Source: Chrysomallon squamiferum | Lineage: Eukaryota; Animalia; Mollusca | Reading direction: 5' to 3' | Length of the DNA: 64,000 nt | Assembly (NCBI GenBank): GCA_012295275.1 | Contig: CM022679.1 | Coordinates: forward strand, 26,784,001-26,848,000 | Part shown: one piece after another, positions 379 to 39,135 of the stretch | How the letters are laid out: each line of letters begins with the position of its first letter | Numbering within the stretch: position 1 is the first letter of the stretch | The notes under the pieces: model-generated | The model's input: the letters and a program-made list of their open reading frames with translations, nothing else | What the model was told of the DNA's origin: nothing | Database searches by the model: none | Position numbers and translations under genes: made by a program

Positions 379-543
379 GCAGTACATTTTAATGTATCCA
401 TATATGATGAATGAAGATCTTGATACCCGTTTAAAACATGTGTGGGATAAAAAAGCTTTGTTATTGTTGGACGATTGTATTCGCATTGTGTACCAGGTGT
501 CTGTTGGGTTAAAGTTCTTGCACCAAGATGATGGACATAACAG
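379..543 (+). CDS. Gene A kinase exon, subdomains V-VIa (hinge, alphaE)
   Basis: tctttcag|g...aacag|gtatgg, 165 nt, phase 2-2; QYILMYPYMMNEDLDTRL...IRIVYQVSVGLKFLH, with the Tyr gatekeeper typical of IRAK/Pelle/RLK kinases. Confidence 0.9.
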
Positions 544-3500
544 GTATGGAATTAACATGATCAGTACAAGGAAGAAAACAACTACAGTTAATTTATGCAT
601 CTTCATTTTAGTTAAATAGCTTGCTTTAAGTGAATGTGTTGATAGATAGATACATTTGCACATGTACAATTGCAAGGCCATACATATCTTTATATATATA
701 TATTGCAGGATAGATGATTTTAGAGTTTGTGTCTAAAACAGATGCTAGTTCTTAGTTTGATATGTATGTAATATGAAATATGGTTAAGTCAGAACACATC
801 TTGTATATCACAAATAATTAATCTGTCCATTGCTTTAGCTGTGGAATTTTAACATGAATATTTCCATGACATTTGTTTTTCTGTCTCCCACAGAATAGAG
901 ATCATACACAGAGATGTGAAAGCTTCAAATATTTTGCTTGATGACATGCTGAATGCTCGACTCAGTGATCCAGGAATAGCAAGAGAGCTTGGTGGTCAGA
1001 CACATGTGACAATCACAAGTCCGATGGGCACTCCAGGATATGTTGATCCTGATGTTTTAAATTCAGGAGAGTTTAGACCAATAAACGATGTGTTTGGTCT
1101 TGGAGTGGGTGAGTGACCTGAAATATTATTCACCAACACACACATACACACATTCCATTACAACAGGCATGCCTTAACACAAATATATATGTATATAAAT
1201 ATACATATACACATAATACCTACATAAACACACACTGACACACACACACAAACACTCATACGCACATATACGCATTCACACACAGTTGAGAAAGCCTGTA
1301 TGCTGGAGTATTAACATTTTATTATGTGATGTTTAGATACAAACACACACCAATTTTTTGTACAAATACAAACAGATGCTATTCTATTCACATTACAATA
1401 TTAAGTACCAGTAGGAGACATATCATCTTTAATCACAATGTTTTCCACTTTATATAGATATAGATATATATATATTTTTTTAATTTTTTTTTTCTCCTAT
1501 CTGACATGTTATTTTAAATTTCTCTTCCTGCTTAATTTAAGCATTCCTCAAGTTTAAGTCTCCATTTTGTTTTCTCGTCAAACTCAGATTTAATATATTT
1601 TTATAACCATTTCACAGGTTATATTTTCATTACTGCTAAGTTTCTGTTTTCATGTTATTGCAGCCATATACTATTTGAAATCACTTATATCTATAAGAAA
1701 TGCCCTGACAAACTGCTGACATCTCTTGTGAGGTCTGCATCAGTGTTTTGTTTCTGCCAACACTGAACAACATGCAGCAGATTGATTTTTCAGTCAGAGG
1801 GTAACATTCTATTTCAGCCCCTTTTGTTGTCTGCAACGGTTCAAGTTTTTGCATGCACTTGTTATTTTTGTATTTTCTCACAATCAGTATTGAGTTCTTT
1901 GACTGTTCAGATTGTTGAAGTACATACCATGTAATGGTAGAACACTGTTTTCAGTTATTATGGCCATAATGAAATTGTTGTGACTCAATTGATTACAATT
2001 TAGCCGAGACTTAAAATACATACACAGCAACAGTAACAGTTTGGACTCTTGTTATTTTTTTTAAGCTTATATCGTGTGTGTGTGTGTGTTACGATGATTT
2101 GACTTAAATTATGCTTTTTGAATTAGGTCATATTTATAAACTAACTACAATAAATTTAATAACAACAATCTTCACCATTTCTACGAGCAACATTGGTTGG
2201 ATATAAAATAGGACATGGAATATAAATAAAATGAATATAAAAGATAATGACTTGAAAGTTATTTTGTTTATTCTAAATTATAAAAATCTATACAAGTTTA
2301 GTCCACTGTAATGACAGTCTATGAATAAGTCAAATTGATTTTATATTCCTGAATTAGTACTGAGTTATTTTAGTTTGTGTGTTTTGTGGAACAAATATAT
2401 CACTGATTTTTAGGGGTTTTATAGTTCGAATTTTAAGAATGTATACTAGTATTTCAAGTCTCTGAACACACCAAACTGATTTATAGTCTTGTTTTTTACG
2501 TTGTTGTTGTTGATTGTTTGTTGTTTTCTTTTGCTGTTGGTAGTGATAATATAACAAGAAATTATTTAACCATATTGAAGAAATGTGCTGTATTTCATCT
2601 GTTTGTTATGTTTTCAAATTGTTTGTTCTTTTGTGAAGTCTGTTGACTGTTTTGTGGAATTGTTTATTCATTTGTCAAATGTGTTCAATGTTTTATGCAA
2701 TTATTTGTTCTTTTCTGGCATGATCACTGCATTGTGGAATTTTTCACAATTTAATGTCTGTTCACATTTACAATTTAAGTTACTGAGCAGAAACTTATAT
2801 ATTATGTTATTAATATCTGTGTAATATATTACTACATTTCAGTTATGTTGCAACTGCTTTTAAATAAGCCAGCACAGATTGAAGTGGAAGAAAAAGGCAA
2901 GACAAAGAAGAAGAATTTACACCAAATGTGTAGAAAAAGAACTGAAAAAGACATTCTCAAAGAAGTAAGAAAATTTTAGTATACTTTTCTTTTATTACAA
3001 ACAAGTTGATTTGTTTCCATTCAGATATCTAATAAAAAAACACCTTTTTGTATGAGTCATGTCCTGTAAAGAATGTTTCAGTGTTAAAATTAAGGTTCGG
3101 TTTGTTTCACATTCACATTCGCTTGACCTTTGCAGTAGCCTGGGGAGTTTTTGGCTACTGGTATATCTTTCAGGAGGCTGAGAGAAAGGAAAGGTTTTTG
3201 TCTTTTTTGTGATACAGTTGCTGAAATTGTGTTTTCTTGTGTAAAGCTGTTGTGTGAATTCTTCCCAAATTCTCAGCAAAATTTTTGAAGAGTCTGAAGA
3301 GGCACTGACCAGCATATGTTGTTATTTCACCATTGGTAATAGTTAAAATCAAGGACTTAGACCTTTCAGAGTGCGAAAGTCGTGCCATCCAATATACCAT
3401 AGCTAATGTTATGATGATTTCTCTCTGGTCACTGGATAGTTGAATGAAAAAGAATCACTTGTTATGAACGCTGATGTGATCCTAGTTAAAAACAAAAGCA

Positions 3501-4725
3501 AACGATGGAAAGCTGAAAACCTAGTTCTGTAGCAGTTGTTAAAGTTACACTAAATATCAGTAATAAAATGTACTCAGATGCCATTCATCAGTATTTCATA
3601 TGTTTGTATATTTCACTTTTTCTATATTTTTTCTTTTTTTCAGGCTAAAGAACAACACAAAGATTGGCCAGAAGAATTATTAAAGAAATTTGTCAACTTA
3701 GCTTGCCAGGCAATAGCTGTTGCTGATGATCGAATTACTCTTGATATTCTCTCTAAACAGCTGCATGTGAGTTGGTCTGCAGATATAATTATCAGATTGA
3801 ATTCCTTTAAGCATTGTTGATTTGAGAAAACTGAAATTAGACTGATTTCATTTCCAATTAGTTGGAAATATGTTAATAATTTATTCCCCAGTCAAACTCT
3901 AGGAAGCCAAAAGAAAAGAACATTGTTAAAATAACCAAAAACCTTTTCATAATATCGTTTCTGTCCTCTCTAACACTGGTTTTTATTTATTTTTTATTTT
4001 TTTATTTTAATATTATTTAATTTTTTATTATTGTTATTGTTATTATTATTATTATTATATGTCAATGAAGGGACATATCATTAATTGTAATATATTTGTA
4101 TTGCTTTCAGTTCAAAATTTGTTTTCATTCTTTTACTATTTTTGTAACTGGGAGAGAAGGAATCTATAGTAAATCTTATTGCTTGTGAAATATTTATTTT
4201 AATTTTTAACAATTTGATTTATTTTTAAACAGGAACTTCTCATTAGTGCCAGTGCTGAATTGTGGAAATGTCCTTACAGTTGACAATGTGTGTGTCTTGT
4301 TTTGGCCAACCAATAGGTTAGTTTTATCTTATCCAAGAATTGTTGATATCACTTTAAACTACTGTTTTAGGATTGTTAAGATATTTGCAACAATTTGATG
4401 TCAGATGATTTTTTCAAAAAGATTAAGTTTTTGAAATTTGGCAGCTGTTCAGTATATAGATAGACAGATATATATATATTTTATTATTTCAGTGAAGCTG
4501 AAGCCACTTTCTCCAAACTGCAATGAAAACTGCACTCGCTTTTGCGTGGATTGTCTTTCCAGAAGCCAAGAAAACCCACTGTTCTGTCCACAGCATGGGG
4601 AATGTCAACCACCAATTGGTAAATACCTTAGTATTTTCTCTGTGATGTCAGTAACATTTGTAATCAGTGTTAACTTTAGAAATTACATTGTCAGTAGATT
4701 CACTTTAAATATTGTTATCTTAGCT

Positions 4726-4775
<50 letters not shown>

Positions 4776-6345
4776 GGAGTCTGTGGAATCTGACCTTTGA
4801 CTAACCCAGATTTCTGTGAAACACAGCACCATTTCAAAGTCCCATCCAGATATTGTCAATCTGTTATGTCTAATCTGGATGCTGTCTACTGTGAATTTCG
4901 GATGTAAGTTCCAGAACAAAAGAATAAGTTGTATAGTAATCAGTTTTGCCAACATCAGCATGCAATTTTTGAACAAATACGGCAGTTTGCACATTTAATA
5001 AACAATGATGTACTTTTTGTAATTACTATAGGCATCTAAAAGAACAAAATAATTATTACTGTGTTGATACCTAAGTGAATTCAGATTTAGATTTAGGGTC
5101 AAAATACCTATGCTGCACATTTTGCATTGTCTTACTCAATTCTTCATAATGGCAGAGTGAACTAAAAATTGGCAATGTATTGAACTTTCTAAACCAAAAT
5201 TAATAGAAGTTTTAGCTATGCAGGGTTCTTGCTAGGCTAGAAAAACAGGGAGAAGTGAGGTTTTGTATAGGTCAAATGAAACAATATGACAAAACCAAAC
5301 CATTGTCACAAAACTAAAATTAAACATGTATATGTGTATATTGATATTCCACTTCTGATAAAACACGGTTTTCAGCAAGGTATTTTTTATACAGACATTA
5401 ATAATAAAATTATTTAATAAAAGGTTTATTCTTACATTTGTTTAGAATTACATGCAGTCTGCTCTGTTCGGTATTGGACCTCTAGTTATGTTAGTTTGTT
5501 AATTTTAATCTTTTCTGTACATGTAATTCTGTACAGTCAGTGATCCAGTTCACCTCAGTTAATTTAATTGTATTCAAGTTAAAAGAACTGTGTTTATCAT
5601 CAGCCTCTAATCACAACAGTAAACAAGGCATTTTTTGTAGCTATTCAGACAGTTGGTCACATGATTCACTAATACATATAATTTGATGGAAATAATGGAA
5701 ATCTGCAGGTTGACAGCAAAATGTGTGTCAATACTTTTTAACTTCCAAGTGATATAAATAAATAAAGAAAGAAAGAAAAAAGAAAGAAAACAAATTAAAA
5801 CAAAAAAAATGTAGAAAGCAAAAATGGAAATTTAAACTTTGCTGTTGGTTTAAAGTAAGGCAAAGTTTAGTACAAAAGGATAAGTATTTTGCCCATTTTG
5901 CCCCCTCACATGAACCCTGACTACACAATTTAAAATATGAAGACAAACAATATCTTAAAATTTAGTGACCATTATCAGCAAGTGTATGAAACCAACTTTT
6001 CAGCAGAGAATAACAACCAGAAAAATATAAGATTAGAATGGATTGAAGATAAACACTATCACTGATCTTTCATATACAGATGTTCTTAAAGACAAAAATC
6101 AAATTAAATCCACTGGCAGACTTTGTCACCCATGTTAAACATGGAGGCCATGATACAGTGGTTGGCTTTGAGAGAAATATGAAATACTGTGATAACTAAC
6201 GGATTATTTTCAGTCAACCTTTGATAGATGTTTAACTGTAGCATTTATAATAAAATATATTCCAATTTAATTTTTAATCTTTATAAACAAGCAGTCTATC
6301 TAAACAGCTTGTGCCATTGGTCCCAAGTGAATCTGATTTTGACAG

Positions 6346-6397
<52 letters not shown>

Positions 6398-8295
6398 TGC
6401 CAGTGTATATATACATACATACTTAGAGATGTAGACACACAGACACACACACCCCATATACACATACAGTTATGCATACATATATACATACATATTAAGA
6501 GACATATCCACACACACACACACACACACACATACTCGCACAGATCTACAGTAAAAGGAACGTCACAACAACGTGGGATGAAAATGGTTATGAATAATAA
6601 TCATAAAAATTGTTTATGTGGAAAATTTACTGAAGTACATACTATGCTGATCCATTTTATTTTGTGCTATGAATTACAGACTTGTAACTCATTAGTTTAC
6701 ATCGTATAACTGTTCTTTCATAATCTTGTGTGCCTGTCATTCAGTAGCCATTGCCTTCACCTGATTTCATTATGAAACTAAAATGATTTCACTTCAGGTC
6801 ACAATAACATATTTGTCCTGATGGTTTCTGGAATTGGTAAAAATCCAAAGGAGAAAATTATACTTAATTCTGATATTGATAGAATGAAAGAAATTCTGGA
6901 GGATAAACATATCATTGGTGTCAGGTAAACTTTCTTTTTATTATTGCTACTGCTTATCCAAAATCCTTGGTCACAAACCAAATCATAATGACAGTGTTCA
7001 TTCGTTACACTTCATGAATTTGCAAATCAGTTACTGGTTTCCCTTTACTAGGTTAAAAATAAAATAATCTACAAAGAAATGTAATGTGTAAGCATAAAAC
7101 AGCACATAATTGTGGTTGATTCGTTATGCACTTCTAAACTAAGAAAAACTGCCCAAAATTTGCAATGTTCTCTAGTCAAATAAAAACATTTAGAAATGGG
7201 TTTAGAGATATTTTATAGTTGTGGGTTTAGATAGATGTATCAGTGATATTAAATGCACATTACTGCACAATATAAATAAATATACTAATATATTTAATTA
7301 ATAAATTGTAAACATGTTTGACTTTTATCAAGTCAGATAACAAAATTGATAAATGGTATATTATTATTAAATAAACTCTTAATGTTTTATCACTGGGCAG
7401 TTTCTGTTAATAATGGACGCACATTTTTGATTTGCAGTTACTTGTATGCATTCATTAATCTGTAATAAAAATAATAATCAGTTTGTTAAAGAGAGCATTT
7501 GTCACATCATAAACACTTTCATTTGTTCAGTAAGAACTTTTTCATTTTTTGCTATTTTAGTCTGAATTAGTTGTTTATCATATATATTTTTATTATTTCC
7601 TTGTTTTTAAAAACTTTTTCAGTCCTGATAATATAACAGTGATCAGTGAAAAGGCTGATAAAAACAGTATTTTAAGTGCTGTTGATGAGATAAAGGAAAA
7701 AGTGGAAGGCCGGTTTGAAAGTCTTTTCATATTTTACTATACCGGACACCACAATATGGAAAGGGAATTTTTAACTGACGAACAGAAAAAATATCATCTA
7801 AAAGAAGAGGAACTGAAAGATCATTTCCGACAACTGAATGCCACATACATGTTGTTCATACTGGACACTTGTTATAGTGGGGGTGCTGACATTGGTGCAA
7901 AGGGTGATTATCAAGACTACTCACCTCCCTGCCTTTGGGATGTTTTTGAGTCTGATTTGCAGGCAAAAGGAGAAAAGTCTGTCTGTGTTGTTCAATGGTC
8001 TTCATCAGCTGAAAACCAGGCGTCTTATTATGAAGGAGACCAGAGTGCTTTTACCTATGCAATCATCAGTCAGCTGAAAAATGAATGTGTCATTTCTTGT
8101 AAAGACTGTTTTTACTGTAATGGTTTTCACAAAAGTGCAAAACACAAGGGCTATATTGACCTTAAAGAACTACATGACTCTGTTGAGTATCATGTTAGGA
8201 AAATTAAGAGTGGAAAACAGCTACCAAAACTACATAAAAAACCAGAAGATGCATTTATCCCACCATTTGCATATTATGTTCATAAAGATATGTAA
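379..8295 (+). CDS. Gene A (5' truncated by window): IRAK/Pelle-like kinase C-terminal half + RING-like finger + metacaspase/paracaspase-like C14 protease
   Basis: GT-AG exons 379-543, 894-1108, 2843-2964, 3644-3766, 4233(or 4280)-4316, 4493-4618, 6798-6924, 7623-8295(TAA). Phases are compatible throughout if the 4280 acceptor is used; the 4233 acceptor gives an early stop. Motifs: LMYPYM, IIHRDVKASNILLD, SDPGIAR, GTPGYVDPD, DVFGLGVVMLQLL, CxxC...CxxxCxxxCxxC...CPxH, FYYTGH, ILDTCYSG. Confidence 0.85.
894..1108 (+). CDS. Gene A kinase exon, catalytic loop to subdomain IX
   Basis: ccacag|a...gtgg|gtgagt, 215 nt; IIHRDVKASNILLDDMLNARLSDPGIARELGGQTHVTITSPMGTPGYVDPD...NDVFGLGV. Confidence 0.93.
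2843..2964 (+). CDS. Gene A kinase exon, subdomain IX-X
   Basis: tttcag|tt...gaa|gtaaga; continues DVFGLGV as VMLQLLLNKPA, matching the DVFSFGVVLLELLTGKPA consensus. Confidence 0.85.
3644..3766 (+). CDS. Gene A kinase exon, subdomain XI
   Basis: ttttcag|gct...cat|gtgagt, 123 nt, phase 0-0; DWPEELLKKFVNLACQAIAVADDRIT resembles the Pelle/RLK WP...LA..C......RP segment. Confidence 0.85.
4233..4316 (+). CDS. Gene A linker exon carrying the first CxxC of the RING-like finger (frameshifted from the 4233 acceptor, in frame from the 4280 acceptor)
   Basis: aaacag|gaa at 4232 gives ELLISASAELWKCPYS*; ccttacag|ttg at 4279 gives LTMCVSCFGQPI in phase with the next exon; donor g|gttagt at 4317. Confidence 0.65.
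4493..4618 (+). CDS. Gene A RING-like Cys/His zinc-finger exon
   Basis: tttcag|tg...attg|gtaaat, 126 nt, phase 1-1; KLKPLSPNCNENCTRFCVDCLSRSQENPLFCPQHGECQPPI. Confidence 0.8.
6798..6924 (+). CDS. Gene A C14 protease domain, first strand and helix
   Basis: cttcag|gt...gtcag|gtaaac, 127 nt, phase 1-2; NIFVLMVSGIG...LNSDIDRMKEIL matches the metacaspase ALLIGI...ND(A/V)xxM motif. Confidence 0.8.
7623..8295 (+). CDS. Gene A terminal exon: metacaspase/paracaspase-like peptidase C14 catalytic core
   Basis: ttttcag|t acceptor in phase with the previous exon; contains the 218-aa ORF. LFIFYYTGH (His codon 7747-7749), MLFILDTCYSG (Cys codon 7870-7872), VQWSSSAENQASY, SAFTYAI, IDLKELHDSVEYHV...QLP. AATAAA at 8321. 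Confidence 0.88.
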
Positions 8296-8349
8296 TTTCC
8301 TGCTAATATTAAAAAAAAAAAATAAATAAAATAAAACATTTTCAGTCAA

Positions 8350-9265
8350 TATGACAGGTGACATTTTACCATCCCCTAGAAATACATCATTATAATAAAA
8401 CAGTTATGTTCATAAAGATATATAATTACCTGCCGATTTAAAAAAATTAATAAATAAATAAGAATAAAATTGTGGAAGCAGCTTCTACATAACTGTTTTA
8501 TTAATATAATGATGTTGAAAGAGAAAATAAGCAGCTTTCCAGCTCCAAGAGCTAGTGTATCAGTTAGTAGCAGAAAGATTCTTCAATCAAACAAGAAAGT
8601 ATAAACCACTACTTTTTAAAAACCGAACACGAGAGGTTCAGTGTATGGCTAAAGTGCAACAAATTACAGATGAACATGCTAGTGACATCTTTATCAACCC
8701 ACCCTTTTTTCCAGATCCAGGTTTATTAAAGGATAAGCAGTTGAAAGCAGTATCATTAATATTATTATTATTATTATTATTATATGTAGATTTTCTCTAT
8801 TTGTTTTTTAATTACAGCAAATTAATATTTGTAAATAAAAGAAATAATTTACCAAAGATGAAGCATATAAGTGTTGCATATTAATCTTCCATTATCAGTA
8901 TGAGTATACTAAATTTTCTAATCGGTATTTGTGATAATTTTATATATATTGTTTTTTTTTAATCATTAAAAATTCAATTTTATAACAATAATAATATCTA
9001 TATATTTTAATAAAATATTTCTTTCGGATGTTTTTTGTTCTTTTTATGCTTTTCATTATTTTGTTTGTTAATTAAAACAAAGATAGCTAAGATGAATAAC
9101 ATTTGAACAATACAAGTCTGAGCAACTAAGTATGTTATATCCCATGTTTCTAAAGCACAGGCACAGCTGGAGACCAACTTGAAAAAGAACTGAAGAGAAT
9201 AAGGGGAAAAAAATGATTGTACATTTTCCTTATAAATAATTTTTATTTTATTATATTATTATTAT

Positions 9266-9302
<37 letters not shown>

Positions 9303-12150
9303 TTCCACAATGTTGGATCAGGATATGGTTTAGCTTATGAATTATCACCTATCATAGCTGAGGTTAATTATATTCTAGTACAGTACAAAAAAAATTCCTT
9401 GTATCACCATTGATCAGCATTCTAATTATCATTCAAGACATTATGAACCAAGTTACAGCTACCCTCAATCAGATTTAAAAAAAAAAAAAAAACTGTTTAC
9501 TTATCTACAGTAATGGGTGTACTGCGACTTTTTAAGATATATAAAGTTTAAATCCAGTTTGTATCAGGATTATTTTTTTTATTAAGATACATGAATCCAG
9601 TCTTCGAGAAAAAACAAATATTAATAAAAATTGGCATTTCTTTTTTTATCTTCAATCTGTTAACCCAGTTTTCTTAAACTACCTGTTTACATGACACCAA
9701 TCTCAACGTGCCAGTGCCTGCATTATTGTATCTAAAGTCTGGTATTCAGTATAGTTCTAGTGTTTTGGGATTGTTATTATCAGCACTCGTATGCTGTGTA
9801 TGTTAGTTGAGAATGAATTTTGGACCTTTGAAACTATCTTGAATACAAAATGAACTTAATGTGTTTTGGAAATTCAACTGGAACAAATCTCGTAGACAGT
9901 CTCTGTATCTCAGTATGTATTGGTTATCAAGTTCACCATTTTCGGGATTGCAGAAATTAATAAAGATACTGAATTTAATGATTTTATCAAGCTCGCTGTT
10001 TTGGGGATTCAAGAAACTAATAAAGATATCGGGATTAGAAATGTTAATATGTTCTGTCTTTGGGATTGCAGAAAAAATAAAAAAAATAGTGGGTTTAAAG
10101 GTATGTACAAACAAGTATTGCAAGCAAAAGACAATGTGGGATAATGATGGATAATGGATCCACAAATAAAAGGCTGTTGTAAATGTTGATTAGCTTCCTG
10201 ACACAGAGCAGCTGCAGTTCATCTACATCTGTCTCATCTTCAACTTCTGAACTATTCTTGACAACAATTTTATCATCCCCTTTCGAGAAAATGTCCCACA
10301 ATTCTAAAATAATCGTTTTTCCCCTTTGTTCAAGTTGTTCATCTGTGATATCTGTTTTTGTGAAAAAGAATCAAATTTGAATTATGAAACAGATGAGCTA
10401 GCCTGAATATTTTTAAGAGTGACAGCTTGCAGTTCACATTAATGAGATTGTGTGGAACACAGTGAAACCAAAATATGCAAGAATAATTTGCACTTGTAAA
10501 AAATAATTAAAAGCAAACACTTATAAATCTAGTACATTGCTTGTCTTAATCAAGTACTAGGGGTAGAAGGAGAATGCCAGCTGAAATGTGGCACTATAAC
10601 GCTCATCTTATTTGATCTGGACTGAATATTTCTCTTTGACTAAAGCATCCTTCTAAACAGATTCTGTTATTTTAGTTTTAGTTAATTATAAATTAATCAT
10701 AATCTGCACATTTGTGAATTTTTATAAACAGTGAATTGGCAAAGAAATATTTTACATCATCTTAATTGTGATTTGGAGAAATTTTGAACACACACACACA
10801 GTTGGGCAAACAACTATTTCAAGTTAATGCCCACTAATGGAGCACAATGGACGTCTGATCATGGAGGATTTTGTTCGTGTGCTTCCAACAGGGAACTATT
10901 TATGTCGAGGACATTTTTTTTTTTTTTTTTTTGAAATAACGTTATCAAGACCATGCCTGTGTTGGAATTGTCATCCATCCATCATATGGACAGCTGTTGT
11001 TCACTAGTTACTGCCTGATAGATTTCAGGATCTGTTCTCCTCAGTTGACCCTTTATTTTTCTCCTTCCAGCACAGAAACAGGACTGCTTTTCTAAAGTAT
11101 CTGTGAAGCTGCTTAAAACTTGCATCAATGTAACAGGTGACATTTTATAATCATCTACAGGACTGTTTTATTATTAAGTAAAAAAGGAAATATGCTGCTT
11201 TTCAGCTCCAAGAGCTAATTTGTCAGTTAATAGTAATTAGGTTCTTTAGTCAAATAAGGAAGAAAATATAAACCACTACTTTTTAAAAGGACACCAGACA
11301 CCAGAGGTTCCGTTTATGGCTAAAGTGCAACAGATTACAGATCAACATGCTAGTGACATCTTTCTGAACTTTTGATCCAGATCCAGGTTTATCAAAGCAT
11401 AAGCAGTTGAAAGCAGTTCTTGTTAATATCATTATTATAATTAGGTGCAGATTTTCTGTATTTGTTTTTTAATTACAACAAGTTATATTTGTAAATAAAG
11501 AGAAATAATTTACAAAAGATGGTGCATATAAGTGCTGCAAATTAATATACTTTTATAATCAATATTTGTGATAATTTTATAGATATTTTTTCTTTCTTTC
11601 AGTTTTTGTCTTTATCATTTTTTTTAAATCAGTTTGTAATAGTAATAGTATTTTTACATATTAATAAAAAATTTTGTATTTTCAAATTTTTCTTATTTTG
11701 TTTGTTAATTGAAAATAAAGATAGCTGAGATAAATAATATTTTTATAACAATACAAGTTTATGAAACTAAGTATGTTTCATCCCATGTTTCTAAAGGGCA
11801 TTAAGAAAGTAGGAAAGGAAAGAAATGATTGTACATTTTCCTTACAAGTAAACAAATAAAATGTTGAAATATTTATTATTATTATTATTATTATTATCTT
11901 TTTTTTTTCTTTTTTTTTCGTTTTCGTTTTGTTGTATTAGGAAATGGTCTAGCTTATGATTTACTACCTATAATATCTGAGGTAAATAATAGTTCAGGAC
12001 AATACAAATAAACCATAGATCCACATTCTAATTATCATTCAAGATATTATAAATGAAGTTACATCTGCCCTTACTCATATATTTTTTTTAAAAACTATAT
12101 TTTCTACGATTTGTTAAGATATAAAAAGTTTAAATCCTGTTTATATCAGG

Positions 12151-12207
<57 letters not shown>

Positions 12208-12221
12208 GAATCCAATTTGTA

Positions 12222-12256
<35 letters not shown>

Positions 12257-13130
12257 CTTTAATCTGTGACCCACAGTTGTTGTTTTTTAAAACTATCTCT
12301 GTTTATATGTCACCTATCTCAACATGCCAGTGCCTGCAGTTATTAGCAGTTACATATGAATAGTTGAATATGAATCTTGAACGTATGAAACTGTCTTGCA
12401 TTCAAAATAGTATCTTGGAAATTTAACTTGAACAAATCTTGTAAACAGTCTCTGTTATCAAGTTGACTGTCATTGGGACTGCAGAAATAAATAAAAATAC
12501 TGGGTTTAAAGATATGTACAAACAATATGTGTCCTGACTGTTTTCCAAGCTAAAGACAATGTTGGACGATGATGGGTAATCAGTCCACAAATAACGATGT
12601 GCCTAGCAGCTATTGTGAATGTTGTTTAGCTTCCTGGCACACAGCAGCTGCAATCCATCTATAACTCTGTCTCATCTTCAGCTTCTAAACTATTTTTGAC
12701 ACCAATTTTATCATCTGCTTTCGAGAAAATGTCCCAAAATTCGAAAATAAAGTCTGTTTTATCCCCTTGGTCAAGTTGTTCATTTGTGATATCTGTTTCC
12801 AAAAAAATCTGTTTTTTTAATGATAACGCATCCAAATTGTAATTCTGATACTAATGAACTATTCTGAATCTCTTCAAGAGTGACAGCTTGCAGTTCACAT
12901 GAAAGAGATTGTGCGGAACAAAATGAAATCAATATGTGTAAGAATAATTTGTAAAAAATAATTATAAGCAAACACTTAGATGATAATAAACTATTGAAAT
13001 ATTTTACATCATCTTAATTCTGATTTGTGGAACATTTTGAATGCTGTAATTACCTGTAAAAACACACATCGTTGAGCAAATATCCATATCTAGATAAAAC
13101 CCACTGTTGGAGCTCAGTTTGATGTTGGAG
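8350..13130 (+). repeat. Older ~2.7-kb tandem duplication downstream of gene A
   Basis: ~8350-10860 vs ~11130-13130 share blocks such as cagctccaagagcta, ggctaaagtgcaaca, ttcgagaaaatgtccca; a third partial copy lies at 41990-42980. Confidence 0.8.
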
Positions 13131-19957: not shown

Positions 19958-20226
19958 TCATTTGTTTTTTGTTCTAGGTGTTGTGACAATTTCCCATCTC
20001 ATATTGAGGGTGGATATATAGTCCACATGTTTCTTCCCACCTAGAAAATGTGCCGAAAAAACCCTCATGTTTGCAGTAACATTAAAATCTTTTTCATTTC
20101 TATGTGAAGCAATTACCCACAAATATTTCCAGTATGCACTGGCTGGGTATAGATGGAAGGATAACGAATTCCCCAACTTCTGCGATAAGAACAGTTAATA
20201 ACTGAACAACAGTCATGGTGTCCCAT
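19958..20226 (-). pseudogene. Frameshifted THAP (C2CH) zinc-finger relic, probably from a DNA transposon
   Basis: MGHHDCCSVINCSYRR / SLSFHLYP...WKYLWVIASHR...FNVTANMRVFSAHFLGGK..DYISTL fits the THAP pattern (C-x4-C, FHxFP, W, VCSxHF, DYxPTL); frameshift near 20176. Confidence 0.75.
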
Positions 20227-23185: not shown

Positions 23186-24676
23186 ATGGCTAATGAACCC
23201 GATATCTGCAGTAAGTATATCTGTCTTTCTTTCTGTAGTGAACAAGTCATTATGACAAATGAAATAAATATGTTGGTTGATAAGTGTTTATTGTCATAAC
23301 AAGTACAAAACTTTATTTTGTCTGATAACCTTGACCTGTTGCAGAAACCAGTAATCATTGCATGAAATAAGAAAAACTATTCAAAAAAAATCGAACAAAG
23401 CAGTTAGTGTGTGTGTATGAATTAGATATTACAAATCTTATTGTCGATTATAAATAAGATTATCAAATGTTAAGTGAATTTAACTTGACTTACTTATCAG
23501 TTATATAATTGTCATACAGTGTTCACCGTTAAATATTTCCAGTCAAAATAGTATCTAGCTTGATGGCAGTGGCAGTTTTACATTCATTTTTCAGTTGTGA
23601 AAAATAACTGGGAAATTATATTTTAAAAGTAGATTTTCTTTGTTGAGTGTTACAATAATTTTAGATTCTGTGAGTTATTTTGATGATTAAAAAACAAACA
23701 AAAAACACTAACATTATGATGAGAAAAATATGTTTAATAATTGTGGATAAAAACAGTGGTTAGTGATGTAAATATGAACAAATATATATATGATATATAT
23801 ATTGATTTCTGGTGCACAGTTATTAATAATATCAACAGTATTTGATATAAAGAAATACTTAAAATTGTACAGTATATTAATGTATAATCATTTTCACTTA
23901 AGATAAACGTTGATGTGGTGAAGATGTGATCCAAATAATTATAATTATTGTAGAAGGTAAAACTAGAATAGCATTGCCATGTCGGTGGCAGTCATCATTG
24001 GTTCCTGGTAAGCCACTGTCGCACTCGCTGCCTTTCAAGGATAACTTGAAGGTGTCCATAGCTTGAAATAAAGATGGCCAAATTCTCTGTCACAGTCAGT
24101 GGCTAATGATTCAAGTTCCCAGAGTAGCAAAGAGCCAGTAGCTGGAGATAAAGATGGCCAACATTACAACACCACAGCCAAGAAGATGAGCATTAAAGAA
24201 ACGAATGAATATTTTAAGGAGGATAATAAATTGTGTTCTGGTGTAGGAGGAACAGTTTATAAAGATTCAGATTTTTATTGCATGTTTAATTTCAAATACA
24301 TGTAGAAAATCTAGCCATTTGTTTAAGACGTTGCAAAACATGTTTCACGAAGTCTGCCACTTTGATTAATTTTTTCAGTTTTCTTACCATCAGCAAAATT
24401 AAAATGTTGCCTACCTGTTTAATTTTCTTTTCTTTTCTTATGCTTTGTTGTTAATCAAAAATTATTCCAAAAAATATATATCGCAATAACTTGGAAGTAT
24501 ACAAAATTTATTTAATCCTTTCATTGGATTCATATTAACTGAAACTTTTCATAACTTGAATATTCATGGTGCATTATTCATTTGTTTTGCTATTATAGGA
24601 TGTAAGCAGTATAATGACGCTGACATGGTTGCATAATGATATTGATAAAGAAAGCATGCAGACATCTTTTGCAATG
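23186..24676 (+). pseudogene. Relic D: truncated pseudogene of the same family
   Basis: ATG exon 23186-23210; DED exon deleted at ~23340; linker/Gly-loop exon ~23954-24264 has an in-frame TGA and a donor mutated to AT (aaag|attcag); subdomain II exon 24599-24676 has a deletion through the VxxK motif; no later exons found. Confidence 0.8.
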
Positions 24677-30700: not shown

Positions 30701-33078
30701 GTTAAGGCAATGAAAATTAATTCTGAGAAGAAATAAGTAATTTATATGATAATAATTGTTTATTATTTCTTCTCATTCTTGCAGTTGTTGTTGTTGTTGT
30801 GTTAGGCAGAGTATTATGTTATTTTATTTTTATTATTATCTTTTTTAATTGTTAATAACATTGACAGGGGATCGTCAGTGTCAGCGTCCATTTTACTTTT
30901 GGAAGAAATTAAGTGTTGAACACAAGCTGTGATGATAATTTAATTTTGTTTCATTGATTTATTTATTTATATAATTGTTATTATTATTATTTCTTTAAAA
31001 ATATTATTCTTTTTGGGGAGGGAACCTTTCATTATTATTATTCTTATTTGTTTTTCTCTCCACAAAGCGGTGAATTTGCTCATATCTTTTCATAATCTTT
31101 TATATACTATTTTCTACTTATTTCCAGCACTGTCAATGTGTTTTATTACTTGTGTGTTCCTAAACAGCCTTGGTCTTAAATGTTTCTGATGTAACTAATG
31201 TAAGTACAAGGCTTGAAATTAACAGGCACAAGTAGCTCTAGAATGTTTCCATTTGCACCTGAAATGCATTTGTATTATCTAACATCTTCGTGCTAATAAA
31301 TAGTTCTTTTTTACGTTTATCACAAAAGTTAATAAGAAGCATTTCAGCTTTAAATGTTAAACTAGTAACAAATTACGTAAAAACTAGATGGTTTATAGGC
31401 CTATATCTATTCTGTTTTATTGAAATATGACGTAATATTAAAACGATATGAAATCTAATTTTGTCACTGCATGTATTATTTTCTCCATAAATAAATGGAA
31501 ATAACTAATTTATATCGTATTTATAGACAAGGCCATCACTAGCAGTAATCGTTTGTATTTTATCAGAACAATTTGTTTTCAGTTTTGGCTCTTACCCATG
31601 AATATCACAAAATGCCTCAAACATATCATAAATGCCTCTCTGCTAGATTCGAGCAATTTCAAAACTTGTATACTATATAAAGATGCAAATCTGCAGTGTC
31701 AGCAGATACCAAAAACTTCATACTGGGTCTTGTAATCACAATTTCCAATTTTCTTTATGTCTACTTTGAACAGTTCATGGTGAAAATACTGAACAGTCAC
31801 ATATAATTATAACAGTGTTGAGAAACATGTGTACATAATAACCTGAATGCAAACAAAAGCTGATGTATGTAAAGTTAGGATGTAAACAGTAGCTGATGTA
31901 CATAGCTGCTGTTGGAAAGTTAGGATGTATTTGTTTGTGAACACTTGCTTATGTATAGAGTTAAGTGTAAAACTGTAATCAGTGTTTCAAGTCGGTGAGT
32001 AAGCATATAGTTCATGAAAATGCCTTCTGATGCCTTTATAAGTTTTCAGTCTTTTCTTTGTGCTATTCTTAATATTGTTTTTGTTTTTCAGTACGGGTAA
32101 GAGGTATTGTAACTACTCGTTGTCTAAATCAATTAATATGAATTAACAATGATTTTTGTTTATAATATGGTGCTCTGTATCCTTTGAGATAAACACACTG
32201 AAAGCAAATACTAAGGTAAGAAAACTTTTTTATGTTGTTGCTTAGAATATGACTTACCAGACCTGCACCTTTAATTGCCCTTAGTTTCCTGATTATAGAG
32301 ATCTTATTGCTCCTGATTAGCACCTAATACTTCTCTGGAATGGGCTCTGAGGATTAGCTCTGTCTGTATATTACTGATTATTATAATTTAACATAAATGC
32401 TTTTTCTCCTTCTAGGTAACATGTATGTATGTATTTGATGCATGTCTGGTAACGGAGAGGTAGGTTTTTAATTTGTTATTTTGACTAAATTTTAAAAATA
32501 ATAATTAAAAAAATTTAAAATGAAAATTAATTTACTTTAGTACTTTAAAAAAAAAATTAAAACATGTTTGGTAATGAATGGACATTTGATAAAGACAGAC
32601 TATATATTATTAATTTGTGTTCACATATTTGTAATATTGAAGTGTAAAAGATCAAGTAGCATGTGTAAAGAAAGGTTGACATTAGTTGACTCTACAGTGC
32701 TTATTTGAAGTAAAAACATCGTAGTTGTTATGAAAAGTTTCTGTTTTAGAATAACAATAGGGTATGTTAAAATTAGTATAACTTTTTAATATTTCCTTTT
32801 GTCTTTACAAAAAATGTAAACAGATCTATAAACTAGATAAGAAAACTAATTTCTTTCCACATTTGGTATTTTCCTTGATCTTGACTATTTACACACACAC
32901 ACACACACACATGCACACACACACGTAACATCAACAACTAGTCACTGTTAAATCTGCACAGTTATTAATGTGTTCTCTGTATCTGTATTTGGAACAATTT
33001 ATTAATTTATTTTTTATTTTTTATTTAAGTGAAAATTTCATTGTTGCTGTGTGTATTTTTTAACTGTTGCTGAGAACA

Positions 33079-36000
33079 ATGGCTTCTGCAGCTGATTTCA
33101 GTGGTAAGTATGACTGTCTGTAGACAATGAGTCATTATGGCAAATGAAATAAGCATGCTGGTTGATAAGTGTGTATTGTCATACAAAGTACAAAACATTA
33201 TTTTGGCTGATAACCATGAGCTGCTGAAGTAGTTTACCATTATCTGAAATAATTCTGATGTCTCAGAATGGTGACTTGCTTTTTCTGTTATTTTCTTTTC
33301 AAGATGACGAAATGCGAGAAAAGCTTTCATCGATAGCAACAAAACTTGAATCTGAGGAACTAGAAAAATTAAAATTTATTTTTCGAGATGCTCTCACGGT
33401 AAAGGACAAAATCAAAACAGCACAAGATCTTTTTGATATATTATGTAAACGTAAAATAATAAGTCGAAAAAATATGGCATCCCTTGTAAAGGCTTTGGAG
33501 TTGATTCAGAGTGAAGATGCCATTGATATGATTGAGACCTTTTACAGAGAAGAGAAAAGGGACATCTTAAAAAATAAATCATGTGTTTCTGAATTTACTT
33601 CTCAACTTTATAAATTTGGTTCTGACATGAATGAAGAAGATGTTGAAAAATTGGCTTTTTGTTATAAAATTAAACAATATAACAATCGATGGGAACTGCT
33701 GATTCTGTTAAGCAAGAAAGGTGATTTGAAAAATGTGAAAAGTATTGAAAAGGTTAAAAAAAAGCTGGGGATTCCTTCAAATGAGAGACCAGCACATCAG
33801 CAGGAACATCGTCCAACTGAGCAATCATCAGAAACCGGTAATCATTGAATGAAATAAGAAAACAATAGTATCTATGTTGTATATGAATTAGATATTTATA
33901 TTACAAATATAATTTCCATTATAAACATAATTATAAAAATAAGTGAATTTAACTTGACTATTAGATACCTATCACAGTTAGATATTTCCATTCAAAATAG
34001 TATCAGCTTAGTTGCAGTTTTGCAATCCGTTTTCAGTTGTGAAAAACACCTGGGGAAATTGTAGTTTAAAAGTAGTTTTCTTCGTTGAATGTCACAATAA
34101 TGCAAGATAGTGTCGTAGGTACTTTGGGTGAAAAAACCCCAAAACATTGTGATCAGTAAATTGTGGTTGATAATTGTGGATAAAAAACAATAGTCAGTGA
34201 CGTAAACATAGCACTAAAATAAATACATTGATTTCTGGTGTTTAGTTAATAATAATATCAACAGTATTTAATATGAAAAAAATATATAAAAGTTACTTGA
34301 AATCGTATGATGTATCAACGTAAAATCATTTTCATTTAAGATAAACATTGATGCGGTGAAGATCTAATCAAGATAATTATAATTATTGTAGCAGGTCAAA
34401 ATGTAAGAGAATTACCAGATGTGCCTGAGGACACTGTGATTTATCACCATTGCCCTGACTACTCAAATTCCCAGTATAGAGAAGAGCCAAAAGCTGTGGA
34501 TAACAATGGCCAACCTGACCACACCACAACCAAGAAGATGAGAATAACAGAAATGAAGGAATATTTTGAGGAGAGTAATACATTAGGAGCCGGTGGAAAT
34601 GGAACAGTTTATAAAGGTTCCGATTTTTATTGCATATTTAAATTTCACATACATGTTGAAAATGTATTCCCAAACATGTTGTAATGAAATCTGCCAATTT
34701 TATTAATCGTTTCAGTTTTATCTGCAATCAGTAAAATTCCAATGTTGCCAACATTTTAATTTTATTTTCTTTTCTTACACTTTGTTATTACCAAAAATTA
34801 TTTCAAGAAAGATATATATCAGAATAACTTGGAAATATACAAAATTAATTTAATCCTTTTATTGGTAGGATCCTGGATGCATATTAACTGTTTATAAGTT
34901 TATTTTAATATGTATCACTTATAAGTAGTTTTTCCTGGTTCAGTGTCGCAACAATTTGAGATCCTGTGAAATCCATTTTGGGCTAAAAATAAAAGAGCTA
35001 AAAAATTTAAACATTGTGATCAGCAAATCATGATTGATAATTGTGGATAAAAACAGTTGTTAGTTATGTAAATAGTGTACTAAAATAAATACATAGATTT
35101 CTGGTGCATAATTATTAATAATATCAACTATACTTCATATAAGAAAATAATTCTTAAAATTGTACAATGTATCAATATAAAATCATTTTCATTTAAGATA
35201 AACATTGATGCAGTGAAGATCTAATCCAGATCATTATAATTATTTAGCAGGTCAAAATACAGCAGTAGTCCAGCGTGTGCCTCAGGGATCATTGGATTAT
35301 TCGCTGTCATCGTCAAAGGCTGATGATTCAAATTACCAGTATAGCCAAAAGCAAGTAACTGTGCATATCTATGGCCAATATGGCAGCATCACAGTGTGTA
35401 AATCTTGTTCAAAGTGCAGACAACATTTGCCTGATGGTTAGTTTCATCTTACCTGAGAACTGTTGACATCACTTTAAACTGCTGTTTTAGCATTGTTAAC
35501 ATATTTACAACAATTGATGTTTTGTTTATATGTTTATTTTAATATGCATGACTTATAAGTAGTTTTTCTTGGTTCAGTCTCACAACAATTTGAGATCCTG
35601 TGAAATCCATTTGGGGTAAAAAAAAAAAAGATAAAACAATTTAAACATTGTGATCAGCAAATCATGATTGATAATTGTGGGTAATAACAGTAGTTAGTGA
35701 TGTAAATAATGTACATAAATAAATACATTGATTTCTGGTGCATGGTTATTAATAATATCCAAAAATATATAATATATAAAGAAATATATATTACTTAAAA
35801 TCATGTGATGTATAAATGTAAACTCATTTTCACTTAAGATAAACATCGATGCATTGAAGATGTAACCGAGATAATTATATCACAAAAAAATGTGGCTGAT
35901 GATTCGAATTCCCAGTGTTGCCTAGAGCCAGTAGCTGTGTTTATCAATGACCACCCTGGCAGACAACATTTTTCTGATGGTTAGTTTCATCTTACCTGAG

Positions 36001-39000
36001 AACTGTTGACATTGCTTTAAACTGCTGTTTTAGCATTGTTAACATATTTAAAACAATTGATGTTTTGTTTATATGTTTATTTTAATATGCATCACTTATA
36101 AGTAGTTTTTTTTGGTTCAGTTTTACCACAATTTGAGATCTTGTGAAATCGATTCTGGGATAAAAAAGTAAAAAAGCGAAATATATATAAACATTGTGAT
36201 CAGTAAATCATGATTGATAATTGTGGATAAAAACAGTTGTTAGTGATGTAAATAGTGTACTAAAACAAATACATGGATTTCTGGTGCAGAGTTATTAATA
36301 ATATCAACTATACTTCATAAAGAAAATAATTCTTAAAATTGTACAATGTATCAATATGAAGTCATTTTCATTTAAGATAAACTTCGATGCAGTGAAGATC
36401 TAATCCAGATCATTATAATTATTATAGCAAGTCAAAATGCAGAAGCAGCTCAACACGTGCCTCAGCAGACGTTGGATTATTCGCTGCCATCGTCAGAGGC
36501 TGATGATTCAAATTACCAATATAGCCAAAAGACAGTAGCTGTAGGTTACGATGGCCAACCTGACCACACCACAACCAAGAAGATGAGAATAACAGAAATG
36601 AAGGAATATTTTGATGAGAGTAATAAGTTAGGAGCCGGTGGAAATGGAACAGTTTATAAAGGTTCTGATATTTATTGCATATTAAAATTTCATCCACATG
36701 TAGAAAATGTATCCAGTTGCTTAAGAAGTTGCAAAATATGTTTCATGAAGTCTGCCACTTTTATCTACCATAAGTAAAATTTAAATGTTGCCTACATGTT
36801 TAATTTTCTTTCTTTTCTTATACTTTGTTATTAACCAAAAATTATTCCAAAATATATATATCAGAATAACTTGGAAATATACAAAACGAATTCAATCCTT
36901 TTATTGGTAGGATCCTGGATTCATATTAACTGAAACATTTCATTACTTGAATATACATGGTGCATAATTCACATTTTCTGTTATTTATTACAGGATGTAA
37001 GCAGTATAATGACTGTGACGTGATTGTCAACGTTTTGCATAATCATAATGGTCAAGAAAAGATGCTGGAATCTTTCAAAATGGTAAAATTACCGCACATT
37101 TTTATCTTTTTATTATTATTGTTATTATAATTTTTTATTTGTCAGTGTTATCAGAAAGCAAAACAGTTATTTCCACTATAAGAAATCTTTTTTCTTTATT
37201 TTTTATTGTTTTAGTATGATGCATACACACGTACAAAGCACATAGCAAAGTCTTTGCTGCTGCTATTGTGACGCTTGAATGCATATAGTTCAAGAGATAA
37301 CCGTAGAAGATGGATCCTGTTACCCATTACAAATCAGCTTTGCATAGCTCCCCATGTTCCATGACATTGTAACTAAATATTTGTGTTGCAGCAAGAGAAA
37401 ACCACGCTAAATGCAAATTTACAAATTTATTATTTATTTACTTTTCTGATTATAAAACTAGAAAAATAATGTCACAAAACAACTGTCGGTGAATGCCCTC
37501 ATAATGTACGTCAAAGTGTTACGTCTGCATGCAAATTTTGCCAGTTCATACAGTGTTGTTTGGGTGTATGGCTGCACAAGGTTCTTGACGTGCCTCAGAA
37601 AAATATTTGAATATGAGATATGTCTATTTTTTTCAGGAGATGATCTCATCTAGAAAAAAGCATCCTTTTTTGCTGCCATTGTTAGCTTATTGTGATGAGA
37701 AGCAAGGGATAAACAGGTAATTACAAAGGAAAAACTCGAATAAAACTGGGATCAGGCCATTCAATTGGAACTGAGAGTTATTGACTTGTATACTAGTTTA
37801 TCACTGTACTACCACTTGGCTCACAATTGAAACAGAAGCATAACAATAAAATAAAAAGGACTTTTTTATTTTTTATTTATTTTTTATTTTTATATAAAAT
37901 CGAAATGTTCACTATAATTAATGGAATATATATGGCAAATGTTCAAATCAAACACCCATTCTTACTTAGTTATGTCGAATATAGTCATTTGCCTTGTTAT
38001 CACATGGGATTGGAAATGAATACTGACTGCTGAGCCTAGAAAAAAAAGTTTGGTGTGTATGTGTGTGCATGTCTCTTTGATTGTTAACATGAGTTTGATA
38101 ATTATCTACAGAAGAGATTCCAGTCATGATTTTATTCAAGCGAAGGTTTAACAGATGGAACCCATCCACTCCCAAAAATGACACTTGGTCTGCATGAAGA
38201 AAATATTTATCTTTAATTTTAAAATATTTCTTTCATTTTTATAAAGTTTTATTTTTGATATGTAGAATAAAAAATTAAAATGCTAAATAATCCATTTTTA
38301 TTTGTTTAAACAGCTAGTACACATTCTAAAAAGACTGTTTGCCATGGTTCTTTCTATGGATTAAGGTCAAAGAAACAATTCTATGTTTTCAGGCAGTGCA
38401 TTTTAATGTATCCATATATGAAGAATAAAGATCTTGATACCCGTTTAAAAGAGGTGTGGGAAGGAAAAGCTACATTATTGTTGGAGGATCGTGTTCGCAT
38501 TATGTACCAGGTGTCTGCTGGGTTAAAGTTCTTGCACCAAAAAGATGGAAATAATGGGTACGCAATTAACATGATTAAGATAAACAAAGAAAACAACTAC
38601 ATTAATTAATATTTCTTCAATTTAGTTAAATCATCTTGCTCTGAGTGTTTGTGCAGATAGGTAGATAGATAAATAGATAGATGGGCAGGCCTATCTGTGT
38701 GTAAACAATCTGTACATGAATATTGCAGGATGGATGATTTTAGAGTTTGTATCTAAAACTACTATTTGTTCCTTGTTAGATAAAAATATACTAATTTATG
38801 TAATATGAAATATGGTTAAGTCAGAACTCATCTTGTATGTCACAAATAATCTGTCTGTTGCTTTAGCTGTTGAATTTTAACATGAATATTTCCATGACAT
38901 TTGTTTTCCCTCTCCCATAGAATAGAGATCATACACAGAGATGTGAAAGCTTCAAATATTTTGCTTGATGACATGCTGAATGCTCGACTCAGTGATCCAA

Positions 39001-39135
39001 GAATAGCAAGAGAGCTTGGTGGTCAGACACATGTGACAATCACAAGTTCGTTGGGCACTCCAGGATATGTTGATCCTGATGTTACAAGTTCAGGAGAGTT
39101 TAGACCAATAAACGATGTGTTTGGTCTTGGAGTGG
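33079..39135 (+). CDS. Gene B (3' end lost at or in the assembly gap): tandem DED + linker + IRAK/Pelle-like (pseudo)kinase
   Basis: Exons 33079-33103 (ATG), 33304-33837, 34395-34616 and/or 35251-35436 and/or 36428-36661, 36994-37082, 37637-37716, 38393-38557, 38921-39135; all GT-AG and phase-compatible. The last two exons are direct paralogs of gene A exons. Confidence 0.85.
33304..33837 (+). CDS. Gene B tandem death effector domain (DED-DED) exon
   Basis: ttttcaag|at...accg|gtaatc, 534 nt, phase 1-1; LSSIATKLESEELEKLKFIF...TAQDLFDILCKRKIISRKNMASLVKALELI (DED1) and VSEFTSQLYKFGSDMNEEDVEKLAF...WELLILL (shorter DED2), like a caspase-8/cFLIP prodomain. Confidence 0.85.
34395..34616 (+). CDS. 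Gene B linker + Gly-rich loop exon, copy 1
   Basis: tag/cag NAGNAG acceptor, donor aaag|gttccg, phase 1-1; ends YFEESNTLGAGGNGTVYKG. Confidence 0.7.
35251..35436 (+). CDS. Gene B chimeric linker exon ending in a CxxC (no Gly loop)
   Basis: ttagcag|gt...gatg|gttagt, 186 nt, open, phase 1-1; QNTAVVQRVPQGSLDYS...ITVCKSCSKCRQHLPD. Confidence 0.55.
36428..36661 (+). CDS. Gene B linker + Gly-rich loop exon, copy 2
   Basis: attatag|ca...aaag|gttctg, 234 nt, phase 1-1; ends YFDESNKLGAGGNGTVYKG. Confidence 0.8.
36994..37082 (+). CDS. Gene B kinase subdomain II exon (VAIK Lys replaced by Asn)
   Basis: ttacag|ga...atg|gtaaaa, 89 nt; CKQYNDCDVIVNVLHNHNGQEKMLESFKM. Confidence 0.8.
37637..37716 (+). CDS. 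Gene B kinase subdomain III-IV exon
   Basis: tttcag|gag...aacag|gtaatt, 80 nt; EMISSRKKHPFLLPLLAYC resembles the E....HxNLVxLLGYC consensus. Confidence 0.82.
38393..38557 (+). CDS. Gene B kinase subdomain V-VIa exon
   Basis: 165 nt, paralog of 379-543; ILMYPYMKNKDLDTRL...RVRIMYQVSAGLKFLH. Confidence 0.88.
38921..39135 (+). CDS. Gene B kinase catalytic-loop exon (DPR at the DFG position)
   Basis: 215 nt, paralog of 894-1108; HRDVKASNILLD...SDPRIAR...GTPGYVDPD. Confidence 0.9.

Follow-up and report, generated by a model that had tools for sequence, protein, structure and literature searches.

Among the described animal signalling proteins, tandem death effector domains (DEDs) ahead of a caspase-fold domain are found in caspase-8/10 and cFLIP, a death-fold domain combined with a kinase is found in IRAK4, IRAK1 and Pelle, and a death-fold N-terminus joined to a clan CD protease with an acidic S1 pocket is found in the MALT1 paracaspase. 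The metacaspases, represented by the plant type II enzymes AtMC4 and AtMC9 and by yeast Yca1, are absent from animals according to a review (PMC5756287). The present work concerns a gene family in the mollusc Chrysomallon squamiferum, located in a stretch of 64,000 nucleotides (positions 26,784,001 to 26,848,000 of contig CM022679.1, assembly GCA_012295275.1; hereafter the window), the copies of which, when considered together, encode DED-DED, an IRAK/Pelle/RLK-type kinase, a RING-like Cys/His finger and a metacaspase-like C14 protease. The complete architecture exists as single predicted proteins across five animal phyla, and the family is real, old and apparently undescribed, representing a death-fold effector fusion with a type of protease that is unexpected in animals.

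Like caspase-8/10 and cFLIP, the family has tandem DEDs before a caspase-fold domain, and the best solved match of its DED exon is cFLIP (E 2e-5); however, a kinase and a RING-like finger lie between these parts, and a DxC motif and an acidic pocket are present in place of QACxG and a basic pocket. IRAK4, IRAK1, Pelle and the plant RLK/Pelle proteins provide the best sequence and fold matches of the kinase and share a layout of death-fold plus kinase, but the family differs from them in its DED-DED (in most members), in a DPG-type motif and in the C-terminal finger and protease. The plant type II metacaspases and Yca1 are the best matches of the protease in profile and fold, and they share with it the GH/DxC motifs, the acidic S1 and a long p20-p10 linker; in contrast to them, the family is modelled with six core strands, some of its linkers are too short for two extra strands, and its protease is fused to animal signalling domains and has an additional Cys cluster in p10. 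MALT1, an animal clan CD protease with a death-fold N-terminus and an acidic S1, is a functional analogue, but the family is without Ig domains and MALT1 was missed by the profile and ranked lower in the fold comparison.

Fusions of invertebrate death-fold and TRADD-N domains (PMC8195603) show a comparable lineage-specific shuffling of death-fold, kinase and caspase effectors in marine invertebrates, but DED+Pkinase, Pkinase+RING and RING+CASPASE are not among the rows listed in the available part of that source. Four isoforms of a single Branchiostoma belcheri gene are entered in its supplement as TRADDN+FN3+Pkinase+CASPASE, and the available text gives no analysis of the protease type. The kinase-prodomain caspases of Macrostomum and Eisenia (PMC11463336) likewise have a kinase fused to a caspase-fold domain in spiralians; however, going by their description, they are single species-specific cases within caspase trees, and the available text mentions no DED or RING. 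The amphioxus hybrid caspases carry QACxG (PMC2575513). Our literature searches, which covered 12 of the 13 supplement files of PMC8195603, found no published description of the family, the amphioxus supplement entry and the kinase-prodomain caspases of a flatworm and an earthworm coming closest, and it is undescribed in the available parts of PMC9334734, PMC7836458, PMC5978004 and PMC10959488; subscription papers may mention it.

The complete chain in the window and in related proteins

Within the window the chain is divided between copies of the gene. By coordinate joining, gene B reads through 447 codons, with no stop, from an ATG through DED-DED up to kinase subdomain IX, and its exons (Table 1; the linker exon is 36428-36661 or, alternatively, 34392-34616) have AG/GT ends. 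The intron after its last exon parallels that of gene A and reaches an assembly gap. Gene A starts mid-kinase at the edge of the window, and its 165- and 215-nt kinase exons, which are identical to those of gene B at 144/165 and 209/215 positions, are followed by six more exons that complete the kinase and add the finger and the protease, with a stop at 8295. A composite of gene B and gene A comes by arithmetic to about 865 residues. A preliminary description of this DNA had proposed these two splicing patterns, the shared kinase exons and the assembly of the chain across paralogs, and all of this holds, the whole chain being present in no single copy in the window. The domains which it expected are also recognised by Pfam, viz. 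tandem DEDs at 33228-33845 (two stretches, E 6e-14), kinase exons in three places (E 1e-12 to 1e-15) and Peptidase_C14 at 7561-8292 (E 5.5e-11).

The splicing of gene A was examined using contigs of three RNA runs from one study (X1-X3) and of one run of unknown kind (X5), aligned to positions 4150-4715. The joint 4316-4493 is GT..AG spliced in the three RNA runs and unspliced in the fourth run. Because the loose ends of the contigs connect this region backwards to the kinase subdomain XI exon and forwards to the first protease exon, the kinase, finger and protease of gene A are spliced together, as shown by overlapping short contigs and by no single read. Among the contig pieces listed, the seven that span exon 4233-4316 all carry one base more than the window, and two of them are identical to gene A at all other letters; due to this, the one-base shortfall in the window is probably an assembly error. 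A second sequence variant, with about 10 letters different in this exon, is also spliced, so that at least two variants are present in the RNA. An inner splice acceptor at 4280, which on paper would mend the frame of gene A, was rejected, as the reads use 4233.

A search with the protease exon led to P0001, a protein of 1504 residues from Gigantopelta aegis in which CARD, DED, DED, kinase and C14 occur in one chain and which aligns co-linearly with the B-then-A composite. A full HMMER scan with the same exon gave 44 relatives, four of which (from Gigantopelta, Lingula, Glandiceps and Owenia) have DED, kinase and C14 in one chain and one of which (P0031, from amphioxus) has Death-kinase-C14; a kinase is placed ahead of the protease in 11 of the 44. 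The order in P0019 (Lingula) and P0024 (Glandiceps) is DEDx2-kinase-C14, and P0018 (Owenia) has DED-kinase and a protease region, its DED being under the Pfam cut-off and its protease being recognised by the HMMER scan, not by Pfam. Other N-termini on the same protease are Ank-Roc-COR-CARD, A20-like fingers (weak), TIR (weak) and DEDs alone. The 18 organism-named relatives (of 31 with source records) are all from animals (8 gastropod, 1 annelid, 1 brachiopod, 5 hemichordate and 3 amphioxus) and are all labelled uncharacterized; many weaker-ranked relatives look bacterial by their domains. Since the domain order is the same in four phyla, mis-joined gene models are an unlikely source of the architecture. 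The proposed fusion of adaptor, kinase, possible E3 and protease in one polypeptide is therefore seen at the level of the family, but not in any copy within the window.

In P0001, the DEDs and the kinase are further separated by a segment of no annotation (residues about 340-580) which the window genes do not have, and the tail of which may resemble a TRADD-N domain.

Phylogenetic placement of the family

In a careful tree of 48 protease domains, the 28 animal-type rows are separated from the others by a poorly supported branch (58/67), and a gastropod group (99/95) includes gene A. Two bacterial-looking rows which were among the animals in a quick tree are outside of them in the careful tree, with weak support, and a single origin of the animal-type proteases is not proven by these sequences. 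As the family is present in both protostomes and deuterostomes, its origin would appear to be bilaterian. Bacterial orthocaspases and kinase-C14 fusions have the GH/DxC motifs and a KG linker in common with the family, and an actinobacterial kinase+C14 cluster scores 0.91 by language-model features; however, the animal-type rows are apart from these, with weak branch support, and no close bacterial relative was found, because of which no donor can be named. Bacterial contamination or a recent transfer is rejected in view of the spliceosomal introns, the spliced RNA and the gastropod nearest relatives.

No named vertebrate, insect or nematode relative is present among the scan matches, the sensitivity of the scan being limited and a 92-member arthropod kinase+C14 cluster, which scores 0.93 by the language-model features of the ESM Atlas, being outside the comparison. 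By the same features, haptophyte and rotifer clusters of the kinase+RING and kinase+U-box types reach 0.87-0.88 and may point to a broader kinase-E3 module. None of the 63 pattern matches from a metagenome scan with P0019 was a relative, and word-based searches were insensitive (1/1268, 1/3692 and 4/7993 candidates). The p10 Cys cluster also occurs in P0016, which falls outside the animal group and is possibly a non-animal eukaryotic relative.

Characteristics of the individual domains

The tandem DED is recognised as two Pfam stretches, the second DED being short in gene B and P0001. The single N-terminal death domain by which IRAK1/4 orthologs are recognised was not found in gene B, P0001, P0019 and P0024, all of which have a tandem DED, and P0031 alone has Death. 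Of the best 60 PDB rows for the kinase of P0001, the first 58 are RLK/Pelle or IRAK kinases, and Foldseek agrees; on these nearest sequence and fold matches, used here in place of a tree of reference kinases, the kinase is classified as IRAK/Pelle/RLK-type, which upholds the IRAK/Pelle label given earlier. The beta-3 Lys is kept in gene C and in 8/8 aligned relatives, and the catalytic Lys and both Asp are kept in relatives across five phyla, with the DFG Phe replaced in every relative. In the window, gene C has the beta-3 Lys, gene A has both Asp, and gene B has Asn at the beta-3 Lys (exon 36994-37082) and DPR at DFG (exon 38921-39135), all three residues being visible in no single copy. Six of the eight relatives with a readable catalytic loop are non-RD kinases, a class tied to innate immunity (PMC8463890).

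The kinase exons of genes A and B differ mostly by non-synonymous changes (non-synonymous divergence, dN, 0.087; synonymous divergence, dS, 0.023), and dN equals or exceeds dS in most comparisons, though not significantly (A/C 0.079 vs 0.072; B/C 0.121 vs 0.150), a pattern that fits diversification, relaxation or gene conversion. Genes A and B share 93-98% identity in the catalytic-loop exon (894-1108 vs 38921-39135) and in some 130 bases of the intron upstream of it, as against about 80% for nearby introns, and 6/6 differences in this exon change the amino acid; the sequences here suggest gene conversion between the two exons.

The finger has eight metal ligands with the spacing of a RING, in a variant C4-C3H order that ends in CPxH, and its alignment of 13 rows contains six invariant and three near-invariant Cys/Pro/His columns. 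All seven PDB matches of its profile are RING ligases (best RNF4, E 4.8e-6), justifying the earlier RING-like label. Pfam RING matches were obtained for 3 and 2 of the 13 members, with weak E values, and RING ligases are absent among the fold-search matches listed, larger domains filling those lists. Judged by its sequence, the finger may be an E3 ligase.

In the protease, the His and Cys of the metacaspase dyad, with GH and DxC motifs (DTCYSG in gene A), are present in every row examined. In 20 rows with positions aligned to AtMC9, one further row being excluded, the acidic S1 residues are conserved, viz. the alpha-1 Asp in 20/20 and the Asp two before the Cys (L4) in 19/20, and these two positions give a basic P1 preference in TbMCA2 and MALT1 (PMC4357240). 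The QACxG motif and basic Arg/Gln/Arg S1 pocket of true caspases were not found in gene A and the aligned rows. The C14 exon alone gave no meaningful PDB match; the protease profile retrieves AtMC9 and AtMC4 (E 4e-7 to 2e-6), reaches caspase-1 only with E values greater than 1, and does not find MALT1 at E up to 10. No Ig family, as would characterise a type 1 paracaspase, is found in the Pfam scans of the relatives, and relative to the type 2 paracaspase layout, which is a paracaspase domain alone that groups with MALT1, the family is multi-domain, the paracaspases being represented in the comparison by MALT1. For the model of the Ptychodera relative (prediction confidence, pLDDT, 81), AtMC4 is the best match (Z 23.3, root-mean-square deviation 3.5, 219 aligned), followed by AtMC9 and legumain (21.1); caspases reach at most 19.1 and MALT1 has Z 18.1, the margin being modest. 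Metacaspases are eight-stranded (PMC4357240), whereas the models of both relatives have six core strands with a disordered linker (pLDDT < 50), and in four relatives the stretch from the Cys to the p10 helix motif is just 35-40 residues, which argues against two extra strands. Based on these sequences and models, the protease is best described as metacaspase-like, being neither a caspase nor MALT1 and not a proven metacaspase; the earlier designation as metacaspase-type is thus supported by pocket, profile and fold, but not by the predicted six-stranded sheet. The p10 Cys cluster was detected by script in 20/28 animal-type rows and 0/17 others, and inspection by eye indicated that the script missed three animal rows and P0016.

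Proposed function and alternative explanations

Based on this anatomy, we lean towards the view that the family constitutes a self-contained, clustering-activated innate-immune or cell-death switch. If this is the case, then upon infection the DEDs (or Death, TIR or CARD in relatives) would be recruited to, or would form, a death-fold polymer, the clustering would activate the kinase in trans, and proximity would activate the protease, which would cleave itself in the linker after Lys (at KG sites) and would then cut targets after Lys/Arg, not Asp, leading to inflammatory signalling or cell death. The RING finger would set the threshold through ubiquitylation, and the copies that are DED-less, kinase-damaged or protease-less would be cFLIP-style dampers or decaying duplicates. 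The steps beyond the anatomy are inferred from the biology of caspase-8, IRAK and MALT1 and from the immune-type swapping of N-termini.

Several observations weigh against this proposal. The finger ligands are altered, with Cys in position 4 and His in position 8, and the Arg that the linchpin rule for RING fingers requires after the last ligand is missing. The kinases of the window copies and of P0001 are of the RD type and do not belong to the non-RD class, and the excess of dN falls short of significance (A vs B, Fisher p 0.09). Throughout clan CD the catalytic His is followed by a conserved Gly (PMC4357240), which gene A and all gastropod rows lack and which is present in only 7/20 rows, and the KG linker sites, found in 19/28 animal-type rows and 12/17 others, are not special to the family. 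Gene B, the sole DED-bearing copy, has a damaged kinase and no visible 3' half. The RNA covers the kinase-finger-protease joints and comes from runs of one study, with the DED-kinase joint derived from genomic exon joining and the database relatives being predicted gene models; the protease, kinase and E3 activities and the immune role are suggested by sequence and analogy.

Of the other explanations, the strongest, though unlikely, is that of local decay, according to which only a DED-less kinase-RING-protease is made in this species and other animals alone have retained the full chain. The DED exon is lost in three of the four visible 5' ends (the stub in gene C, and fragments D and E), gene B has kinase lesions and internal exon scrambling, and gene A is 93% identical to the DED-less gene C (positions 43-840) and 81% to gene B, due to which gene A may lack DEDs too. 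However, gene B retains its 447 open codons and canonical splice sites, the A-type transcripts are spliced and in frame, and the result for the family as a whole is in any case left untouched by local decay. It is also conceivable, if rather improbable, that the kinase is a bait for microbial effectors, whose modification of it trips the attached protease, the protein being in this case a guard or decoy sensor, in the way that plant RLCK decoys serve NLRs. The mostly non-synonymous differences between the paralogous kinase exons, the open frames of both the kinase-damaged gene B and the DED-less gene C, and the replacement of the DFG Phe in all relatives speak for such a decoy, but the catalytic Lys and both Asp are kept as in an active enzyme, and the dN excess lacks significance.

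We consider it more doubtful still that the protease is inactive, or nearly so, and that the protein is a cFLIP-like or RIPK-like scaffold signalling through its DEDs, kinase and RING. This would agree with the missing Gly after the catalytic His, the nearness of the DEDs to cFLIP and a possible protease-less isoform in the RNA; however, the dyad residues and the two S1 Asp persist where the overall identity is 20-35%, also in the stand-alone proteases P0006, P0007 and P0009. Least probable in our estimate is a non-immune role in developmental cell removal or protein quality control, as in many metacaspases: metacaspases and orthocaspases are often homeostatic (PMC5756287), but the lineage-specific expansion, the TIR/CARD/DED/Death swaps of the N-terminus and the patchy occurrence in marine invertebrates fit conflict genes (PMC8195603).

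Organization of the tandem array

The window is animal DNA of high AT content (about 30% GC) in which microsatellites occur, and self-comparison shows it to be a tandem array of one gene family, with a unit of about 29 kb and with copies that are partly broken (Table 1), a picture of birth and death of tandem copies. The tandem expansion described earlier is present as an array, but the family is old and extends over five phyla, and is no local invention.

Table 1. Features of the C. squamiferum window, in order of position
Feature	Position	Strand	Basis
Gene A kinase exon, 165 nt, subdomains V-VIa (5' part of gene precedes window)	379-543	+	Exon comparison
Gene A kinase exon, 215 nt: HRD, DPG, GTPGY, subdomain IX	894-1108	+	Pfam Pkinase, E 1e-15
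Gene A kinase C-lobe exon	2843-2964	+	55% identity to P0001 1036-1077
Gene A kinase subdomain XI exon	3644-3766	+	RNA loose ends join exon end to 4233 (X1-X3)
Gene A linker and first Cys pair of RING-like finger	4233-4316	+	One base short in window, full length in reads
Gene A remainder of RING-like finger, ends CPxH	4493-4618	+	GT..AG joint from 4316 in X1-X3, absent in X5
Candidate alternative last exon, ending protein ahead of protease	4724-4800	+	One X2 contig from 4618 into similar letters; weak
Gene A protease exon 1: beta-1, alpha-1 with acidic S1 Asp	6798-6924	+	RNA loose ends link 4618 to exon (X2, X3)
Gene A protease exon 2: TGHH and DTCYSG dyad motifs, two-KG linker, p10 with extra Cys cluster, stop	7623-8295	+	Pfam C14, E 5.5e-11
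Fragment D, broken: exon 1, DED exon deleted, linker exon with lost donor, shortened kinase exon	23186-24676	+	Self-comparison
Gene B exon 1 (ATG)	33079-33103	+	Coordinate joining
Gene B tandem-DED exon, sole DED exon in window	33304-33837	+	Pfam DED; nearest solved relative cFLIP
Gene B repeated linker/Gly-loop exons: 34392-34616, chimeric 35248-35436, degenerate near 35880, 36428-36661	34392-36661	+	Self-comparison
Gene B kinase exons: 36994-37082, 37637-37716, 38393-38557, 38921-39135	36994-39135	+	Pfam, exon joining
Assembly gap, 200 N	40783-40982	.	Within short local repeat, directly ahead of expected next exon of gene B
Fragment E: exon 1, DED-exon deletion identical to D	52336-52632	+	Sequence comparison
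Gene C: 59939-59963, 60500-60715, 61067-61155, 62715-62794, 63549-63713; beta-3 Lys kept, leaves window	59939-63713	+	Exon joining

No second DED exon was found within the 64 kb. Gene C has a frame of 191 residues with no stop if its DED-exon stub is skipped, and the breakpoints in fragments D and E are identical. In gene B, the chimeric exon 35248-35436, of which a degenerate copy is present at about 35880-36063, joins the front of the linker exon to the first Cys pair of the finger and is followed by an intron like that after 4316 in gene A; it may be what remains after the kinase was lost by deletion, and recalls P0002, in which DED-DED and protease occur with no kinase.

Past the gap, 40983-42910 contains a copy of the upstream region fused to a copy of the 3' flank of gene A, a junction suggestive of the loss of an entire gene. 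Self-comparison also shows a duplication within the 3' flank of gene A (8484-9584 vs 11154-12166, 71% identity). Degenerate THAP-domain remnants occur once per repeat unit on the reverse strand, at 19961-20194 (Pfam E 0.005) and 49103-49348 (E 5e-5), and are likely a transposon relic copied along with the array.

Significance of the family

The surveys of mollusc and spiralian caspases have been confined to QACxG caspases. It is a serious, if still tentative, possibility that the family is a third animal caspase-fold lineage beside the caspases and paracaspases, i.e. a metacaspase-like enzyme cutting after Lys/Arg that is hard-wired to a RING, a Pelle kinase and death-fold adaptors, that was present in the bilaterian ancestor and was kept and reshuffled in marine invertebrates, and that has gone unnoticed since the usual model animals appear to be without it. 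If this is true, it would provide a new protease class and a caspase-independent death or immune route for animals (gastropod, annelid, brachiopod and hemichordate, with the Death form in amphioxus), and the chain would be a one-polypeptide equivalent of the RIPK/IRAK-E3-caspase complex. As a natural case in which adaptor, kinase, putative E3 and protease, which are separate in the vertebrate ripoptosome and CBM, are predicted within one polypeptide, the family also bears on the origin of those complexes.

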